From the IMG/VR virus record IMGVR_UViG_3300020166_000010: a DNA stretch of 64,000 bases; one strand, given 5' to 3'. This document shows, one piece after another, positions 1 through 52,711 of this stretch. Position numbers and translations under genes: made by a program. Source of the stretch: a virus. The notes beneath the pieces were generated by a model that did no database searches, was not told where the DNA came from, and was given only the letters and a program-made list of their open reading frames with translations. Position 1 is the stretch's first letter; every line of letters starts with the position of its first letter.

Positions 1-47
1 ACATCTGAGAAAGACTTAAAAGACTTGATTTTATTCATTTCTGCCAT
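1..47 (-). CDS. 5' end of a gene running off the window (MAEMNKIKSFKSFSD...), possible capsid-targeted protein
   Basis: ATG at 47, frame open to window edge, late-type motif at 82-89; N-terminus resembles the KxKxFxxF motif of the 45-49 kb cluster. Confidence 0.6.
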   Translation of the reverse strand, partial: MAEMNKIKSFKSFSD

Positions 48-5329: not shown

Positions 5330-5698
5330 TTATAAAGCTTTACCGATAGCAGCACCTAAAGCGGCTCCAACTAATCGTGAGGTTAACATATCATAAAATA
5401 CTCCTTTTTGAATCCCTAATACTTTGGCAATAGTTTTACCAACGGTTTTACCAAGAGCAAATCCAGTTAATCCTCCAAATATAGAACCGAACATTCCTTC
5501 ATTAGTCATTTCATCATTAAAAGAGTTAATGTCGTAAGAACCGTCTTCTAGTTGGTATTCTTTCGTAAATTGCTCTAACGCTGCATCGACTTTTTCTTCA
5601 AGTTCAGTTGTCCATTCAGATTGTAAAGACTCAGTTAATACACTAAGCTCTTTTTCAGTTATGTCTTGTTCCTTAATTAATTCTAAAAATGTTTTCAT
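5330..5698 (-). CDS. putative internal virion protein: capsid-targeting N-terminus, acidic pro-region, C-terminal glycine zipper
   Basis: MKTFLELIKE start; GxxxG-rich amphipathic C-terminus; late motif 5 nt upstream. Confidence 0.6.
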   Translation of the reverse strand: MKTFLELIKEQDITEKELSVLTESLQSEWTTELEEKVDAALEQFTKEYQLEDGSYDINSFNDEMTNEGMFGSIFGGLTGFALGKTVGKTIAKVLGIQKGVFYDMLTSRLVGAALGAAIGKAL

Positions 5699-11635: not shown

Positions 11636-11643
11636 TATATATT
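11636..11643 (-). promoter_or_regulatory. late-type promoter motif AATATATA
   Basis: Recurrent motif upstream of 11609. Confidence 0.55.
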
Positions 11644-44310: not shown

Positions 44311-44488
44311 ATTTTAAAGCTCCTATGTGATCCTCTACGAATTCTTCAAGATAGTTTATTGATTCACTAGGGCCTATCACCGCGTCAGGACTCGTTACGT
44401 ACATTTTATAAAAGAAAGCGTCACCTAACTCGATTCTTTTTCTTTTTAAATCTTCTAATTCTGGTAGATATCTTTTATTGAATCCCAT
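44309..44488 (-). CDS. small hypothetical protein missed by the ORF track (59 aa, MGFNKRYLPELEDL...)
   Basis: Manual translation; fills the gap and overlaps the dCMP deaminase stop. Confidence 0.6.
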   Translation of the reverse strand: MGFNKRYLPELEDLKRKRIELGDAFFYKMYVTSPDAVIGPSESINYLEEFVEDHIGALK

Positions 44489-44990
44489 TCCATGTATTTA
44501 CTTGTTTAACTTCAATTCCTGCGGTTTCTAAGAGCTCAACTCCGCTCATGTCTCTGTATTCTTCTGTATAATATACCATTTTAATTCCAGCTTGTATAAT
44601 TAACTTAGCACATCCAAAACATGGACATGTTGTAGTGTATAGATCAGCACCAACACAACTCATAGTCGATTTTGCAACTTTCATAATTGCATTTGATTCT
44701 GCGTGTAAAACAGCAGGTTTTGTTATTGCACCATGTTTGTGGCAAACACCATTGTTACATTCATATCCCTGTTCTGCTAAATCAACAGCGAGGTCTGGGT
44801 TTTCGTAATATCTAGTATCTGTTTCTTCACATGAATTATCAAACCCATGAGGCATTCCATTATAACCGAATGAAATTACTTGATGATCTTTTACGATGAC
44901 ACACCCTACTTTACGTCTTTCTGCGTAACTAAGTTGAGCAAACTGATATGCTGTTTGCATGTATACTAATTCTATTGGTATTCTTGGCAT
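44475..44990 (-). CDS. dCMP deaminase
   Basis: KVGCVIV, GYNGMPHG, HAESNAI, PCFGCAKLIIQAGI. Confidence 0.92.
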   Translation of the reverse strand: MPRIPIELVYMQTAYQFAQLSYAERRKVGCVIVKDHQVISFGYNGMPHGFDNSCEETDTRYYENPDLAVDLAEQGYECNNGVCHKHGAITKPAVLHAESNAIMKVAKSTMSCVGADLYTTTCPCFGCAKLIIQAGIKMVYYTEEYRDMSGVELLETAGIEVKQVNTWNGIQ

Positions 44991-45036: not shown

Positions 45037-45065
45037 AAAAAAAGCCCGGATTTCTCCAGGCTTTT
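45037..45065 (-). terminator. intrinsic terminator
   Basis: Minus strand AAAAGCCTGGA-GAAA-TCCGGGCTTTTTTT. Confidence 0.85.
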
Positions 45066-45086: not shown

Positions 45087-46274
45087 TTACTCTACATCAG
45101 TAGCGTCGTCTGCTAATTCAGATTCTTTCATTTCGTTAATTTTAGTAGTATATGATTCGATCATTGAATTACAAGCTGCTTCATATGCTTCAGTTGAATA
45201 ATCTTCTTTCATTTCTTTAAGAGCTCCAGCTGCTAATGCCGCAACTAATGCTGCGTTTTCAGCCATGTAAGATTCTACAGTGTGAGAGTCATGCGCGTCT
45301 TCTTCCCATACTTTAGCTTCGTTTTTACAAGATTCATAAACTTCTTTTAACATTGCTGCTACTGCGATAGCAGCTGCAGGATTTTCGTTTACTTCTTCAG
45401 TCTCTTCAGATTCTTTAACTCCTAAAAAGTCTGCTGCTGCTGCTTTTAATTCGTCATAAGTATATTTACCAGTTAATGCGTCATCAAGAATTGTTCCTCC
45501 TTTTTTACCAATCGCGTATAATGATACGTGATCAAATCCTAACCAAGGTCCAACGAATTCGTCTGATGCTTTTAAACCTAAATCTGTAGATAATGTCCAT
45601 GATAAAGATCTTCTTCCTAAGAATTGGTCATTATAACCTAATTTACCAGCTTTAATATAACCTGATGCGTTTACAGCTTCTTCAATTGCTTCAGCTTCTT
45701 CGACTTTAAAAGTTTCTCCGTCGAATTCAAATTCATCTTCACCAGCTTCTTTAGCTTTTCTAACTGCGTCTCCGAAAGCATTACCTTCTTCAACCTCTTC
45801 AGTTTCTTCAACTTCTTCAGTTTCTTCAACCTCTTCAGATTCTTCAACTTTAAAAGTTTCTCCGTCAAATTCAAATTCAGTTTCACCAGCTTCTTTAGCT
45901 TTTCTAACTGCATCTCCGAAAGCATTACCTTCTTCAATTGCTTTAACTTTAACAGTAAATGTCTCTTCTGATTCTTCGATGTATTCTGCTAAGTCAGCAT
46001 CGTCCCATCCGTATTGAGAATCTGCTAATACTGTTTCAAGATCTTCTCTTTTACCTGTTAGTTCAACTTCTGGAAATCCTGAAGGACCGTCCTGGTCGAT
46101 AACTTCCATAGAAACTTTGTTTTTCTTAAGTAATTTTGCAAGACCTTTTGATTTTGGGTCAACTGCATCCATCACAACAGAAGCTTCCTGAACTTCTAAA
46201 TTGTTAATTTCTTCTTGATTGGCACTAGCTTGCTTTTCCGCAACGTACTGCTCAAACGATTTTAATTTAGCCAT
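45087..46274 (-). CDS. very acidic, modular head/internal protein with capsid-targeting-like N-terminus
   Basis: MAKLKSFEQYVAE start; many (I/V)xE sites; duplicated 32 aa module. Confidence 0.6.
   Translation of the reverse strand: MAKLKSFEQYVAEKQASANQEEINNLEVQEASVVMDAVDPKSKGLAKLLKKNKVSMEVIDQDGPSGFPEVELTGKREDLETVLADSQYGWDDADLAEYIEESEETFTVKVKAIEEGNAFGDAVRKAKEAGETEFEFDGETFKVEESEEVEETEEVEETEEVEEGNAFGDAVRKAKEAGEDEFEFDGETFKVEEAEAIEEAVNASGYIKAGKLGYNDQFLGRRSLSWTLSTDLGLKASDEFVGPWLGFDHVSLYAIGKKGGTILDDALTGKYTYDELKAAAADFLGVKESEETEEVNENPAAAIAVAAMLKEVYESCKNEAKVWEEDAHDSHTVESYMAENAALVAALAAGALKEMKEDYSTEAYEAACNSMIESYTTKINEMKESELADDATDVE
45696..45937. repeat. two ~98 bp direct repeats (45696-45793, 45840-45937) separated by short EEVEET-coding tandem units
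   Basis: Encode EEGNAFGDAVRKAKEAGExEFEFDGETFKVEE twice. Confidence 0.9.
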
Positions 46275-46309
46275 AATATAATTTATTTTATTGTTTTTTA
46301 TTATTAATC

Positions 46310-46317
46310 TATATATC
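46310..46317 (-). promoter_or_regulatory. late-type promoter motif GATATATA
   Basis: Upstream of 46274. Confidence 0.6.
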
Positions 46318-46323
46318 TATGAA

Positions 46324-47355
46324 TTAAATGATAGTTTCTCTACCATCAATAACGTCCTGGTAATTAACTCTACCCTTAGATCTTTTAATTTGATCTTCGT
46401 TTTCTTTTAAGTTTATTTTATAAATAGGTCTAATATATTCTTCATTTAAATACGTCTTGAATTCCTGTGGCAGCTTTTCTCCATAAAAATCCTCATATAC
46501 TGCAACATAAACTCTAGCCATTTTATCTGCTGCCATTCCTGAAGCTGAATTGATTTCTGCAACCCAACAATCGCCAGATTTATCTACCATTAAATCAATT
46601 GACCAAAGACCAAGCTTTAATTTTTCTCTAACAGTTTTGCAGATATCAGTTATTTTATCCATAAAATCTAATTTACTTGTGTCTTGATCGACATACGTAA
46701 ATTCAGTTTTTTCACCTGATTTTTTATCTTTAATTTCATTTTCAGTTGCTGATACTCTTTCATGAACTAATACCACAGTATCATTTACTAATAAAATTCT
46801 AAACTCAGTATCTAAGTCTTTAGCCTCTGAATAGTTTTGAAATTCCCCTTTACTTTTTTCTAAGTCTTCATAAGTATCAAAAATCTCAATACCCATTCCG
46901 GAGTGTCCATCATCTGGTTTTGCAATTACAGGAAATTCTAAATCCTTCGCATCTTCTTTTTTATAAACAGCCTTTGGTATAAAATCTGAATCTTGAAACA
47001 TTTTATAAAAGTCAGTTTTATTACCGCTAATCTTCATAGCTTCTGGTAAATTATACATATCATCTTCTGATATACCGTACTTCTCTAAAAAATCTAAACC
47101 TTCTTTTGAGTTTCCACCATAATAAATAAGAGGTAGTTTTGAATTAACTTCCAAGTCTTTTCCATAATCTCCTTTAGCATAAAAGGCATTATATAGTTCT
47201 TTTAAACAAATTTCGTTTACGTCGCCGTAAATACTATTGTTTGTGCCTGTAAGGCCTTTTACCTCTTCTCCTGCTAATATAAAATTAACTTTTTTTAGAT
47301 AATCTTTATTAGACTTTTCAAGTAGAAATTTCTCAAATAGTTTTACTTTTTTCAT
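46324..47355 (-). CDS. ATP-grasp (RimK-like) ligase with capsid-targeting-like N-terminus
   Basis: FPVIAKPDDGHSGMGI, EFRILLV, SIDLM...VAEINSASGM; start MKKVKLFEKFLLE; late motif at 47378-47385. Confidence 0.8.
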   Translation of the reverse strand: MKKVKLFEKFLLEKSNKDYLKKVNFILAGEEVKGLTGTNNSIYGDVNEICLKELYNAFYAKGDYGKDLEVNSKLPLIYYGGNSKEGLDFLEKYGISEDDMYNLPEAMKISGNKTDFYKMFQDSDFIPKAVYKKEDAKDLEFPVIAKPDDGHSGMGIEIFDTYEDLEKSKGEFQNYSEAKDLDTEFRILLVNDTVVLVHERVSATENEIKDKKSGEKTEFTYVDQDTSKLDFMDKITDICKTVREKLKLGLWSIDLMVDKSGDCWVAEINSASGMAADKMARVYVAVYEDFYGEKLPQEFKTYLNEEYIRPIYKINLKENEDQIKRSKGRVNYQDVIDGRETII

Positions 47356-47369
47356 GATAGCTTTTTTAT

Positions 47370-47717
47370 TTATACCCTATATATCTTGATCTTAAGATCT
47401 GATGTTCCTGGTAATATTCTATGAATAACTCCCGTTGGTATTTTTATATCTACGCCGATTATGAGTGGTGTTGGTAATTCATTGTCATATTGAAATCTCC
47501 AGTCGGAATCTTCTAATACTTCAATAACCCTATCTTCAGGGTCGCTGTGCCATTTATATAAGTGTTCTGGATAGCTTGGATCGAATGTTCTTATAATATA
47601 ACCATCATACTGCTCTTCAACGAAAGGCTTAGTTTGATCATTTATGTTAGATATCAATTCTTCCATTGACATGCTACCACATTTACAAGATTTACATTTA
47701 CAATCTTTATCTACCAT
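47370..47717 (-). CDS. small cupin-fold protein with Cys-rich N-terminus
   Basis: WHSDPEDR...WRFQYDNELP...IPTGVIHRI; ATG at 47717 overlapping the upstream stop preferred. Confidence 0.65.
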   Translation of the reverse strand: MVDKDCKCKSCKCGSMSMEELISNINDQTKPFVEEQYDGYIIRTFDPSYPEHLYKWHSDPEDRVIEVLEDSDWRFQYDNELPTPLIIGVDIKIPTGVIHRILPGTSDLKIKIYRV

Positions 47718-48250
47718 GGCTGATCTGATTTTAAACCTAATTGTTTTCCAAAAAGAGTTGGTCCATAACATGCCCAGAATCCAGCTTTCATTGGATCCAT
47801 TTTTTCTGCTTTATCGCAACCATGTCTCGCCCAGAAACTAGCAGCTTTTCCAGGATTATCATTTTTAACTGTAAGGTTTGGATCTCCCCATTCTACCTTT
47901 TTTGCTAATACATTCCCTTCTTTGTCTTTTCTACCTCCGTCTCTATATACTATAAACTTCTTACCTCCACCTCGTTCTGGCGAATCTAATTTAACTTTAA
48001 TTGTCTTTCCTCCGCGTGGAGTATAAAGAGCAGGTTTACCTACATCTAGATTTTTAGCCATCCAGCCTGACGGTCCTTTTAGAATAATGTTATTTTTATC
48101 CCAGTATTCTTTAACCTCTTCGAATAGTTTAGAATAGGCATCACTACCTAATCTAAAGAATGAATTAGTTAAATCTAAATCTTCTGCAATATGTGCCTTT
48201 AATTCTGGTGAAACCTTTTCCCAAGCTTCAAATGTTTTTATAAATTTCAT
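47711..48250 (-). CDS. conserved-type phage protein with capsid-targeting-like N-terminus
   Basis: MKFIKTFEAW start (48250); C-terminal KKVEWGDP...SFWARHGC...AGFWAC domain. Confidence 0.7.
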   Translation of the reverse strand: MKFIKTFEAWEKVSPELKAHIAEDLDLTNSFFRLGSDAYSKLFEEVKEYWDKNNIILKGPSGWMAKNLDVGKPALYTPRGGKTIKVKLDSPERGGGKKFIVYRDGGRKDKEGNVLAKKVEWGDPNLTVKNDNPGKAASFWARHGCDKAEKMDPMKAGFWACYGPTLFGKQLGLKSDQPW

Positions 48251-48254
48251 ATTT

Positions 48255-48560
48255 CTATTTTTCCATGTTATCAATTAAATCCTGTCGGTCTAATTGTTTA
48301 TAAACTTCTTTACGAACCTTTTCCATTTTATCAGCATACTTTGGGTCGTCATTACGATTAAACACAACCTGCTGGGTTAGTGAACCACTGATCTTCTTAA
48401 CATCACCCTTACGAGTCTTAATTAACCATGCTGCTAAATCTTTAATCCCTAAATCTTTAAACCTACCCTCAGCCGGAGGTGCATCTGACTTGTTAAAGTC
48501 TGGAGCTCCTGCTGGTTTTTTCTCTGTAATGAATTGTTCGAATAACTTTATAAATTTCAT
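48255..48560 (-). CDS. hypothetical protein with capsid-targeting-like N-terminus
   Basis: MKFIKLFEQFITE start at 48560, 1 nt after the upstream stop. Confidence 0.7.
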   Translation of the reverse strand: MKFIKLFEQFITEKKPAGAPDFNKSDAPPAEGRFKDLGIKDLAAWLIKTRKGDVKKISGSLTQQVVFNRNDDPKYADKMEKVRKEVYKQLDRQDLIDNMEK

Positions 48561-48561
48561 G

Positions 48562-49026
48562 TTAATCTTCTTTTGATTTGAATGGTAACTTTTTATCGTG
48601 ACCTCCGTCTCTAACTTCTTTAGCAACGTCGGAATCAGCACCGCCCCAAGTTCCTTTTCCTTTTTCTAAGAATGCATTTATTCTGGCATAGCCCCATCCT
48701 TCTTGTGTCATACCTGGATGGTGTCCACCGTTCCAAGCGTCCATTCCACGTCTCATTATGATTCTCAATAAAGGTACAGGTACTCCACTTTCTTTTGATT
48801 TGTTCTTGATTCCAGTTTCTACAGCCTTACCTTTAAGAGGTCCTCTGTCTCCTTTAGCCTTTTCTGCTTCATTAACAGATTCTCCTAAAACTGGCGTATT
48901 ATCATGACCACATTTGTGGCATATGTAAGGATCTTCACCGCCTTCGTCTAATCTCCAAGACCAGTCACACCCTTCGCAAGATACTTTATTTGCTGAAAAC
49001 TCTTCAAACAATTTAACGTATTTCAT
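48562..49026 (-). CDS. Zn-ribbon plus conserved helical domain protein with capsid-targeting-like N-terminus
   Basis: MKYVKLFEEF; CxxC...CxxC; RRGMDAW..GH.PG....WGYARINAF. Confidence 0.7.
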   Translation of the reverse strand: MKYVKLFEEFSANKVSCEGCDWSWRLDEGGEDPYICHKCGHDNTPVLGESVNEAEKAKGDRGPLKGKAVETGIKNKSKESGVPVPLLRIIMRRGMDAWNGGHHPGMTQEGWGYARINAFLEKGKGTWGGADSDVAKEVRDGGHDKKLPFKSKED

Positions 49027-49051
49027 TTTCTTTTAATCTTTGTTTATACTC

Positions 49052-49059
49052 TATATATC
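49052..49059 (-). promoter_or_regulatory. late-type promoter motif GATATATA
   Basis: Overlaps the uvsE stop; heads the capsid-targeted cluster. Confidence 0.62.
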
Positions 49060-49987
49060 AGGATAAAACTAGATCATTTAGATATTCTTTACGGTATTTG
49101 ATTAAGGCTAGCTCTTTAGCTTTGACTTCTAGTTCAATATCAATATCCATGTCATACGTTTCTATTTTTTCGTATATGTAATCAGCATGTGCTCTCAATA
49201 TAACAGATTCATCTTCATGTAGCTTTTTTGAAGAAGAGTAGTGACATAATTGGCGAATACCTTTAGGCCATGTTTTTGCACATAATTCAAGTGCATCTTT
49301 TTCTGACATTGGATCTTCATAGCACCTGTGATGGTGGTAGTCGAACGTGATAGGTATATTAGTCTTTTCGTAAATCTCATAAAGATCTTCTACGCCGTAT
49401 TGCGCAGGCTTATCGTCATTTTCTATAACCAATCGAGCCTGTGCAGATTTTGATAAACGTTTAAAGTTATCAACGAACCTTTGCTTTGCGGCATCCTTGT
49501 CGCCGTATGAGCCACCTACGTGAATGTTCATAGAATACGTATGGTTTTGTGGTAATCCCATTGAATCTAGTATAAGCGCTGATTGATCTAGTTCTCTGAT
49601 CGCAGCATCTACTGTTTTAGGAGTTGGGCTTGGTAAAACACAAAACTGACCTGGGTGGAAACCTACGCGCTGATTGTATTTTTGAACAAGAGTACCTGCG
49701 CCTTTGAGTAGATTAGATATTGTTTGCCAATTAGGTAAATCAGTTAATTCATACTCACTCATCCAAGGGAACATAGAGCTACTCATACGGTAAACATTAA
49801 TGCCTTGTTTGTGATTCCACTTTATAATCTCAATAAGATCTCGAACATTTGCTTCAGCTAATTCTCCAGCGTATTTAATACCTTTAGCGGTGAATGTTCG
49901 TTTGATCATTGATCGACCGATCTTGATGTCATGATCTTTTTGTAGTGTTAAATTAATGCAACAATATCCGTAGTTTGCTTTTCCCAT
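49058..49987 (-). CDS. uvsE: UV-damage endonuclease (UvsE/UvdE)
   Basis: GYCCIN, YRMSSSMFPW, FHPGQF, IHVGGSYG, RLVIENDD, FDYHHH, HADYI, EVKAKELA. Confidence 0.92.
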   Translation of the reverse strand: MGKANYGYCCINLTLQKDHDIKIGRSMIKRTFTAKGIKYAGELAEANVRDLIEIIKWNHKQGINVYRMSSSMFPWMSEYELTDLPNWQTISNLLKGAGTLVQKYNQRVGFHPGQFCVLPSPTPKTVDAAIRELDQSALILDSMGLPQNHTYSMNIHVGGSYGDKDAAKQRFVDNFKRLSKSAQARLVIENDDKPAQYGVEDLYEIYEKTNIPITFDYHHHRCYEDPMSEKDALELCAKTWPKGIRQLCHYSSSKKLHEDESVILRAHADYIYEKIETYDMDIDIELEVKAKELALIKYRKEYLNDLVLS

Positions 49988-52522: not shown

Positions 52523-52711
52523 TTATTCTGGATTGTTAAATTTTTGCTCGACGTATTTTGCTTTTTGTAATTTAACACGTTTTGCTGCTGAAGGTTTGGT
52601 ATAATCTTTACCTTCGCGAAGGGCCTTAGTTTGGCCTGTTTTATTTACTTTATATTTAAATGACTTTAAAGCCTTTTCTATATTTCCTTTTTCTACTTTG
52701 ATTATTAGCAT
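52523..52711 (-). CDS. rpsU: ribosomal protein bS21
   Basis: MLIIKVEKGNIEKALKSFKYK...LR...YTKPS..KR...QKAKY; Bacteroidota-type bS21. Confidence 0.88.
   Translation of the reverse strand: MLIIKVEKGNIEKALKSFKYKVNKTGQTKALREGKDYTKPSAAKRVKLQKAKYVEQKFNNPE

Follow-up and report, generated by a model that had tools for sequence, protein, structure and literature searches.

Why should five of six consecutive phage genes encode proteins that begin alike and have nothing further in common? The question is raised by positions 45087-49059 of a 64,000-nucleotide stretch (the window) of the IMG/VR virus record IMGVR_UViG_3300020166_000010, where a block of six minus-strand genes, flanked by a UvdE endonuclease gene (49058-49987) and a dCMP deaminase gene (44475-44990), contains similar N-termini at the gene starts 49026, 48560, 48250, 47355 and 46274 (tagged genes 1 to 5). 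We propose, from sequence comparisons, that the shared start is probably a capsid-loading tag, which would mimic the scaffold of the phage head and be clipped off by the head protease. The initial annotation of the window had quoted these five N-termini together with two located elsewhere, at 5698 and 47, and all seven are indeed found at those coordinates.

In the window the starts follow the pattern M-K-x-[IV]-K-[LTS]-F-E-x-[FYW], of which the one at 46274 is a variant, and all five contain the core K-x-[FY]-E-x-[FYW] four to five residues past the Met. Given the amino-acid composition of the window, 0.85 matches to the core would be expected by chance anywhere and 0.012 at the starts of the ~75 genes, whereas 7 were observed in total, 5 of them at gene starts, which bears out the claim that five of the six genes share a start. 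The tag-like matches that appear to be internal are located where GTG or TTG starts are likely. Past residue 13 the bodies of the five proteins are unrelated, as the initial annotation had maintained (all-against-all BLASTP, no pair better than E = 0.5). It had also reported that two of the starts are hidden by over-long open reading frames (ORFs), and this is the case for 48560 and 48250: the true ATGs, each 1-4 bases past the preceding stop codon, are masked by longer GTG/TTG ORFs.

The source of the window is an uncultured marine T4-type jumbo phage. The sequence has 32% G+C, the minus strand carries nearly all genes, and matches to PHROG profiles comprise a gp41-type helicase, a primase, a gp32-type single-stranded DNA-binding protein and gp6-, gp25- and gp5-type baseplate proteins. 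The nearest records are G001 (24 kb; 98% identity across the block) and G002 (175 kb; baseplate protein 99% identical); the baseplate wedge proteins of G003 (234 kb), G022 and G016 (a complete 256-kb genome with terminal repeats) are 76%, 75% and 68% identical, respectively. Among GenBank phages, the capsid protein of G003 is closest to that of the uncultured 462-kb huge phage LR756500.1, followed by those of the Lak phages of Prevotella, Sphingomonas phage PAU and Tenacibaculum phage PTm1.

A tag collection was started from loci with relatives of the ATP-grasp gene of the block (gene 4), and all fetched loci were pooled in it. These loci contain 274 distinct tagged proteins, whose bodies form at least 169 unrelated groups (136 singletons). 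The column consensus is M1 K2 [HYK]3 [IV]4 K5 L6 F7 E8 [QE]9 F10 [IVL]11 N12 E13; L-F-E occurs at residues 6-8 in most of the tags, [ILVMF]-x-E at residues 11-13 in 163 of them, and conservation breaks off abruptly at residue 13 (F-[ILV]-N-E), with nothing conserved beyond it. Synonymous codons at the conserved positions follow the usage of the bodies (TTT/TTC for F is 76/24 in both; for L, TTA 51% and CTA 37%), hence it is the peptide that is under selection. A degenerate DNA pattern for tag residues 1-10 was scanned in IMG/VR and in 596 Gb of prokaryote genomes. The former yielded at least 164 matches in at least 120 stretches; among the matches listed, 159 look like gene starts, and in 101 residues 11-13 read [ILVM]-x-E, about which the pattern is silent. 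The latter yielded 102 matches (28 start-like), the convincing ones being in Bacteroidota bins that resemble phage contigs; the pattern is thus a virus-specific one. With a loose pattern, the tagged genes number 48 in G007 (482 kb), 15 each in G016 and G022, 8 in G017 and 6 in G020; further records have ~22 (G003), ~12 (G002) and ~10 (LR756500.1). The complete relatives thus have 6 to 48 tagged genes each, against 0-1 matches for reversed-pattern controls, and in G003 the core was found 31 times, 25 of them at starts. The genomes of PTm1, Tenacibaculum phage pT24, Flavobacterium phage immuto and Methylophilales phage Melnitz gave no match to the loose pattern.

Two observations concern the distribution of the tag within single genomes. 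LR756500.1 (loci L169-L179) uses a genome-wide variant with Tyr at position 7 and Glu, Gly, Ser or Pro at position 6 (M-K-Y-I-K-E-Y-E-E-F occurs five times), and tag and head lineage may vary together. In G002, about eight tagged genes form a second cluster at 23.7-36.3 kb (locus L039), which corresponds to the DNA just left of window position 1; they are interleaved with genes for an untagged 629-aa cytidylyltransferase-domain protein, a UPF0227-type hydrolase and a 1008-aa protein; the phage of the window therefore has two cargo loci.

According to the initial annotation, all the tagged genes lie behind a late promoter motif. This holds for 49026, 47355 and 46274, which are the only starts of the block with the box GATATATA directly upstream (minus strand; 49052-49059, 25 nt before the ATG at 49026; 47378-47385, where the box is followed by TATAAATA; and 46310-46317). 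It does not hold for 48560 and 48250, which lie within the operon of 49026, so that the block comprises three late-type transcription units and not five. The same box precedes the baseplate genes at 11643, 18458, 29586, 36314, 38230 and 41995, and in tagged clusters it is carried by the leading genes only.

The relation between tags and bodies is best followed in the genes of the block. Orthologues of the ATP-grasp protein, which share 27-93% identity, have all kept the tag, while the residues following it diverge, and the orthologue from LR756500.1 carries the variant of its own genome (M-K-F-I-K-P-Y-E-E-F). The homologues of gene 3 in pT24 and immuto have different starts and no tag, and the one in Melnitz has no tag either. 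In Melnitz, the gene-3 domain and the DUF5824 domain (found in gene 1 of the block) belong to one 651-aa cytidylyltransferase protein, in Pelagibacter phage HTVC008M they are ~170 bp apart (the annotation differs between its two records), and in the window they are encoded by separate genes with one tag each. Another relative has the gene 2 domain and DUF5824 fused behind a single tag, and a relative with 80% identity has the same cassettes in another order and cut differently. As judged from these comparisons, the tag is added onto the bodies and not inherited with them; the proposal of the initial annotation that it is portable is upheld by the body groups, at least 169 in number, and by the untagged homologues outside the clade. 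Since the pieces of split multidomain proteins are each tagged and even orthologues of 27% identity keep the tag, the comparison suggests that every polypeptide needs a tag of its own. The 651-aa fusion of Melnitz-3 (MZ577098.1; L182:558-2510) starts with M-K-K-F-S-E-I-I-E, which resembles the T4 capsid targeting sequence (CTS); by the look of this start, the same cargo may be targeted to the capsid in Kyanoviridae-type phages too.

In the strict-tag set (116 body groups) few known domains were identified and most groups belong to no known family. The recognizable cargo consists of lysozyme, CHAP, two endolysin families, a family with an "internal virion lysozyme motif", a PolX-type nucleotidyltransferase, a methyltransferase, PAP2, a cytidylyltransferase, a glutamine-amidotransferase-like fold, an RNA ligase and a weak 2H/Acb1-like match. 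A tagged ClpP reported by our first cargo survey was a false match of the loose pattern (M-N-H-G-K-E-F-E-R-Y); ClpP is untagged, and only strict tags were admitted when the survey was run again.

Relatives whose baseplate protein is 54-76% identical to that of the window have a T4-type head module. In G003 the capsid protein of this module is of the gp23 type and an S77 protease makes up the N-terminal portion of a 640-aa protein, and S77 protease, scaffold and gp23-type capsid protein are all present in G003, G022 and G016. Among 21 large tag-bearing contigs, the capsid protein was found in 16 and the protease in 12, always as a 600-750-aa fusion adjoining the capsid gene. The gene order in G003 and seven further genomes is portal, small acidic tagged protein, protease-scaffold, capsid protein; in these 8 relatives the tagged gene occupies the slot of T4 gp67/gp68 (T4 order 20-67-68-21-22-23).

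Several further features of this module were noted. The middle part of the protease-scaffold fusion of the 12 relatives (L189-L200) is a strict 14-residue repeat with up to 11 copies of Y-S-E-Y-[LI]-A-E, and in the eight closer relatives read (including G003, G014, G019, G022, G016 and G006) an acidic low-complexity stretch follows it. The gene 3' of the capsid gene (L189, L191, L193) frequently begins with a tag-like motif that is shifted by six residues, e.g. M-K-L-K-S-K-L-K-L-Y-E-Q-F-V-N-E, and in G019 the scaffold and capsid genes are separated by an additional 192-aa gene with a full tag. We also considered the start of the capsid protein, M-A-N-L-I-N-E/A-E-I, as a propeptide cut like the T4 sequence L-T-E/A-E-I; this reading was dropped, as the alignment with T4 gp23 puts M-A-N-L-I-N-E at the beginning of the T4 propeptide and not at the cleavage site.

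The last seven residues of the tag follow the pattern of both the scaffold repeat and the T4 CTS. The heptad [FYW]-x-[EQ]-[FYWH]-[ILV]-x-E is found only 6 times among the 116,707 residues of the window, G002 and G003 that are not N-terminal, whereas each of the 12 protease-scaffold proteins contains 3-11 copies of it with a 14-residue period (four copies within 640 residues: P ~5e-8). The scaffold unit, L-D-K-N-I-x-Y-S-E-Y-L-A-E-N, has hydrophobic residues at positions 1, 5, 7, 10 and 11 and Glu at 13; when the unit is laid on the tag, these positions meet M1, I4, F7, F10, I11 and E13. The amphipathic moment of the tag is moderate: the consensus is in the top 3% of shuffled sequences, and the variants of the window are not significant.

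Cargo that meets a protease cutting after [LI]-x-E would be expected to avoid this triplet in its body. The ratio of observed to shuffled-expected [LI]-x-E is 0.97 in 263 tagged bodies, as compared with 1.19 in 1,368 untagged ORFs of the same contigs, i.e. a tagged/untagged ratio of 0.81 (bootstrap 95% interval 0.75-0.88). No depletion was seen for the controls [LI]-x-D (0.96), [LI]-x-Q (1.03), [LI]-x-x-E (0.99), E-x-[LI] (0.95) and [LI]-x-K (1.10). The depletion is modest but confined to Glu and to this spacing.

The following mechanism would account for these features. The tag (consensus M-K-H-I-K-L-F-E-Q-F-I-N-E) would imitate one unit of the phage's own 14-residue scaffold repeat; the tagged proteins, presumably produced late, alongside the structural proteins, would co-assemble with the prohead scaffold core; the head protease, which is of the T4 type (S77) and forms one protein with the scaffold, would cut after the Glu of [ILV]-x-E and thereby remove the tag; and the mature cargo would stay in the head. 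The cargo encoded in the window would then consist of the ATP-grasp ligase, the zinc-ribbon/DUF5824 protein, two small basic proteins and a long acidic repeat protein. That the tag binds the scaffold and is cleaved off, that the cargo resides in the virion and that it is delivered into the host are steps that we infer. The support for a link between the tag and T4-type head assembly is indirect and comes from several independent lines: the gene in the gp67/gp68 slot, the resemblance to scaffold and CTS, and the depletion of [LI]-x-E. The narrower proposition that the tag is literally one scaffold-repeat unit reused as an address label is one that we advance tentatively, as it falls a little short of probable.

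A number of observations weigh against the proposed capsid loading. The terminal [ILV]-x-E is present in three of the five tags of the window and missing at 49026 and 48250, and ~40% of all tags are without it. A strict profile of tag residues 7-13 gave no scaffold match of 8 bits or more, so that the likeness is one of pattern and not of sequence. The measured depletion of [LI]-x-E depends on heuristic ORF calls. The head module is absent from the 175-kb record G002, one of the nearest, and the link to the head therefore rests on other relatives; some large tag-bearing contigs have no match to S77 or gp23 (these may be fragments). ClpP is about as frequent as the head genes, being present in 14 of 23 tag-bearing records. 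Across relatives, late boxes precede 28% of tagged genes versus 19-24% of all ORFs, only a slight excess, which is weak because most tagged genes sit inside operons. tblastn searches of GenBank phages with the head-module tagged protein and gene 2 of the window as queries found nothing, and thus no cultured relative with the tag. Finally, T4 gp61.1 (a 54-aa hypothetical protein encoded beside the primase gene; NC_000866, 18966-19130) starts with M-K-T-F-K-E-F-I-K-E and is not known to be packaged, thus such a start alone is no proof of packaging.

Could the tagged proteins be loaded and yet deliver nothing? They might act in the prohead only, as accessory core or scaffold proteins or as filler, and then be degraded or expelled. 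It would agree with this that the clearest tagged gene encodes a small acidic protein in the gp67/gp68 slot, that T4 gp67 and gp68 are cut into fragments (PMC5694885), and that the product of 45087-46274 is very acidic and repetitive, with 18 [LIV]-x-E sites. We nevertheless consider it unlikely: most cargo bodies are depleted of [LI]-x-E and not rich in it, many are enzymes with intact folds (lysozyme, CHAP, ATP-grasp, methyltransferase) that would be useless inside the prohead, and cargo turns over fast between relatives, as do the internal proteins of T-even phages (PMC3012670). A reading without any packaging would have the tag serve as a docking label for something other than the scaffold, for instance a phage ClpC-ClpP system for timed degradation or a chaperone. 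The tag is indeed short and flexible and could form a moderately amphipathic helix, as many degrons do, and the frequency of ClpP has been given above; this co-occurrence equals that of the head genes and is therefore uninformative between the alternatives. A docking label would leave unexplained the tagged head-module gene of 8 genomes, the scaffold-repeat pattern and the Glu-specific depletion of [LI]-x-E, and ClpP is itself untagged, so we regard this possibility as quite improbable.

The peptide might also be a by-product of selection on the mRNA, if an A/U-rich initiation region were favoured late in infection by ribosomes remodelled with the bS21 and bS1-like proteins of the phage. Bacteroidota start translation without a Shine-Dalgarno sequence, the window encodes a bS21-like protein, and related phages have been proposed to favour late mRNAs via bS21 (PMC9723584); moreover, codons ending in A are somewhat enriched at K2, K5, V4 and L6. 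Yet the synonymous positions vary freely, the replacements are conservative in the peptide (F/Y/W, I/V/L, E/Q), the last conserved residues form a protease-type triplet, which is no RNA feature, and none of the major late structural genes of the window begins with a tag-type start, which makes such an origin very improbable in our judgment. As to chance, AT-rich low-complexity bias or diverged paralogy, the genome has only 32% G+C and K, F, I, N and E have AT-rich codons; however, five starts against 0.012 expected, the near-empty reversed-pattern controls and bodies that include unrelated known folds reduce this explanation to a practically negligible one. We thus retain the interpretation of the shared start as a scaffold-mimicking, protease-removed capsid-loading tag.

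The kind of system is known. In T4, the CTS (MKTYQEFIAE) of the internal proteins IPII and IPIII is cut off by the prohead protease gp21 (10.1101/2021.01.19.427310, PMC3012670, PMC5694885). Both sequences are short N-terminal peptides on unrelated proteins, encoded in variable loci, of phages with a gp23-type capsid protein and an S77 protease (here, in the relatives), and the consensus of the tag has, like the CTS, [ILV]-x-E at its end. The heptads Y-Q-E-F-I-A-E (T4) and F-E-Q-F-I-N-E (tag) have 3 identical and 3 conservative positions out of 7, a stretch too short to establish homology statistically. In contrast to the CTS, the present tag is three residues longer (M-K-H-I-K-L precedes the heptad) and occurs in 6-48 genes per complete genome, while T4 has IPII and IPIII as exact carriers and gp61.1 as a near match. 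The T4 cargo consists of small basic DNA-binding proteins, and the cargo described here mostly of enzymes and domains of no known function; furthermore, unlike in T4, a head-core gene is itself tagged, and protease and scaffold form one fused protein with a 14-residue repeat. The T4 scaffold protein gp22 (NC_000866, 104117-104926) starts with M-L-K-E-Q-L-I-A-E-A, resembling the end of the CTS, Q-E-F-I-A-E-A.

In phiKZ-like giant phages (SPN3US, phiKZ), ~50 head-internal proteins per head are processed by a T4-related prohead protease, and their propeptides are thought to target ejection proteins to the prohead (PMC5694885). Those propeptides have 80-130 residues, share no single short tag and are cut at A/S/G-x-E, whereas here one 13-residue tag is reused. 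The tag strings were absent from the literature searched, a comparative review of jumbo phages makes no mention of capsid targeting, and the papers searched give no account of how the T4 tag is recognized. In the literature searched we thus found the kind of system, as the T4 CTS, and not the form and scale of the tag, its presence in the head core or its likeness to the repeat of the protease-scaffold protein.

The cargo-loading peptides of encapsulins are likewise short, portable terminal peptides that send unrelated enzymes into an HK97-fold shell; unlike the present tag, they are C-terminal, bind the shell directly without scaffold or protease, and stay attached.

The genes of the block, all on the minus strand, can be described as follows. 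Gene 1 (48562-49026, 154 aa) has a truncated tag (residues 1-10, without E13), a CxxC...CxxC zinc ribbon and a C-terminal DUF5824 domain (PF19141, E 2.5e-10). Gene 2 (48255-48560, 101 aa, basic) has a full 13-residue tag ending in I-T-E and is a member of the largest cargo group (19 members from 16 sources). Gene 3 (47711-48250, 179 aa, basic), with a truncated tag (K-T-F-E-A-W), is followed by the untagged sixth gene (47370-47717, 115 aa, Cys-rich start), whose ATG overlaps the stop codon of gene 3 (ATGGTAG), an arrangement of translational coupling. This untagged gene is a conserved neighbour of the gene-3 homologue in pT24 and immuto, and its product may be a partner of the gene 3 protein that rides along untagged. 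Gene 5 (45087-46274, 395 aa, isoelectric point 4.2, internal repeats) starts with M-A-K-L-K-S-F-E-Q-Y, and its tag, ending in F-E-Q-Y-V-A-E, is the variant nearest to the scaffold repeat. The block is ended by an intrinsic terminator (45037-45064) with a 10-bp stem, a GAAA loop and U7, which a consensus terminator scan had missed (folding energy -17.9 kcal/mol, z -5.6).

Gene 4 (46324-47355, 343 aa), whose full tag ends in L-L-E, is predicted to encode an ATP-grasp carboxylate-amine ligase with the Ddl/RimK/LysX fold. Pfam profiles Dala_Dala_lig_C, ATP-grasp_3 and RimK match it above their cut-offs. A sequence search against solved structures gave nothing with E <0.1, therefore a fold search was needed: with an AlphaFold model (predicted local distance difference test (pLDDT) 79, predicted template modelling score 0.81) that is confident in the body and has pLDDT <50 for residues 1-14, Foldseek reported Ddl, ArgX/LysX, PsnB and RimK as the best matches (E ~1e-11). 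No subfamily stands out, as the identity to all solved relatives is 12-19%. The ATP-grasp ligase and the zinc-ribbon protein that the initial annotation had named among the cargo are thus both recovered.

The two remote starts added to the cluster by the initial annotation fared less well. The gene at 5698 (5330-5698, minus strand, 122 aa, acidic) begins with M-K-T and the heptad F-L-E-L-I-K-E and has a late box 6 nt upstream; it lacks the motif of the cluster, and its start, which is nearly identical to that of T4 gp61.1, recurs solely in its own orthologues, a single protein family, and so does not count as a portable tag. The C-terminal 50 residues of its product are Gly/Ala-rich, hydrophobic and glycine-zipper-like, and the gene lies upstream of a RuvC-like gene; the sequence suggests a small membrane-active protein behind a late box. 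The start at 47 is a doubtful member, of which the window contains the first 15 codons (1-47, minus strand). Its 746-aa counterpart in G002 has no family match, the tag match is weak and Lys stands in place of the invariant Glu; per G002, the gene adjoins the second tagged cluster just left of the window edge.

As to the hosts, the metagenome-assembled genome (MAG) bins with real-looking tags point to Bacteroidota. CAIWBA010000291.1, a 254-kb contig in a Bacteroidetes MAG bin, contains three real-looking tagged genes (loci L213, L240, L265) and is probably a phage genome mis-binned as host. The bS21-like ribosomal protein gene of the window (52523-52711, 62 aa) is a feature shared with the bS21-encoding Bacteroidetes jumbo phages, which, according to PMC9723584, are uncultured, reach 331 kb, have Flavobacteriia and relatives as predicted hosts and possess T4-type head genes. 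They look like the same broad group as the phage of the window; a term search of that paper found no description of a shared N-terminal tag.

If the proposed function is true, a 13-residue string would predict the virion payload of a large, uncultured and abundant group of marine and freshwater Bacteroidota phages, and hundreds of protein families of unknown function would become first-minute effectors, candidates for anti-defence or host-takeover activity. The imitation of the scaffold repeat would provide a mechanistic explanation of capsid targeting sequences, and the tag would be a ready short label for loading foreign proteins into large capsids. Were the tag literally a scaffold unit, scaffold mimicry would be a general cargo-loading rule in T4-type phages, T4 included, and the set of packaged, probably injected proteins of this clade (6-48 per complete genome), with its likely anti-defence enzymes and hundreds of unknown families, would be readable from sequence.

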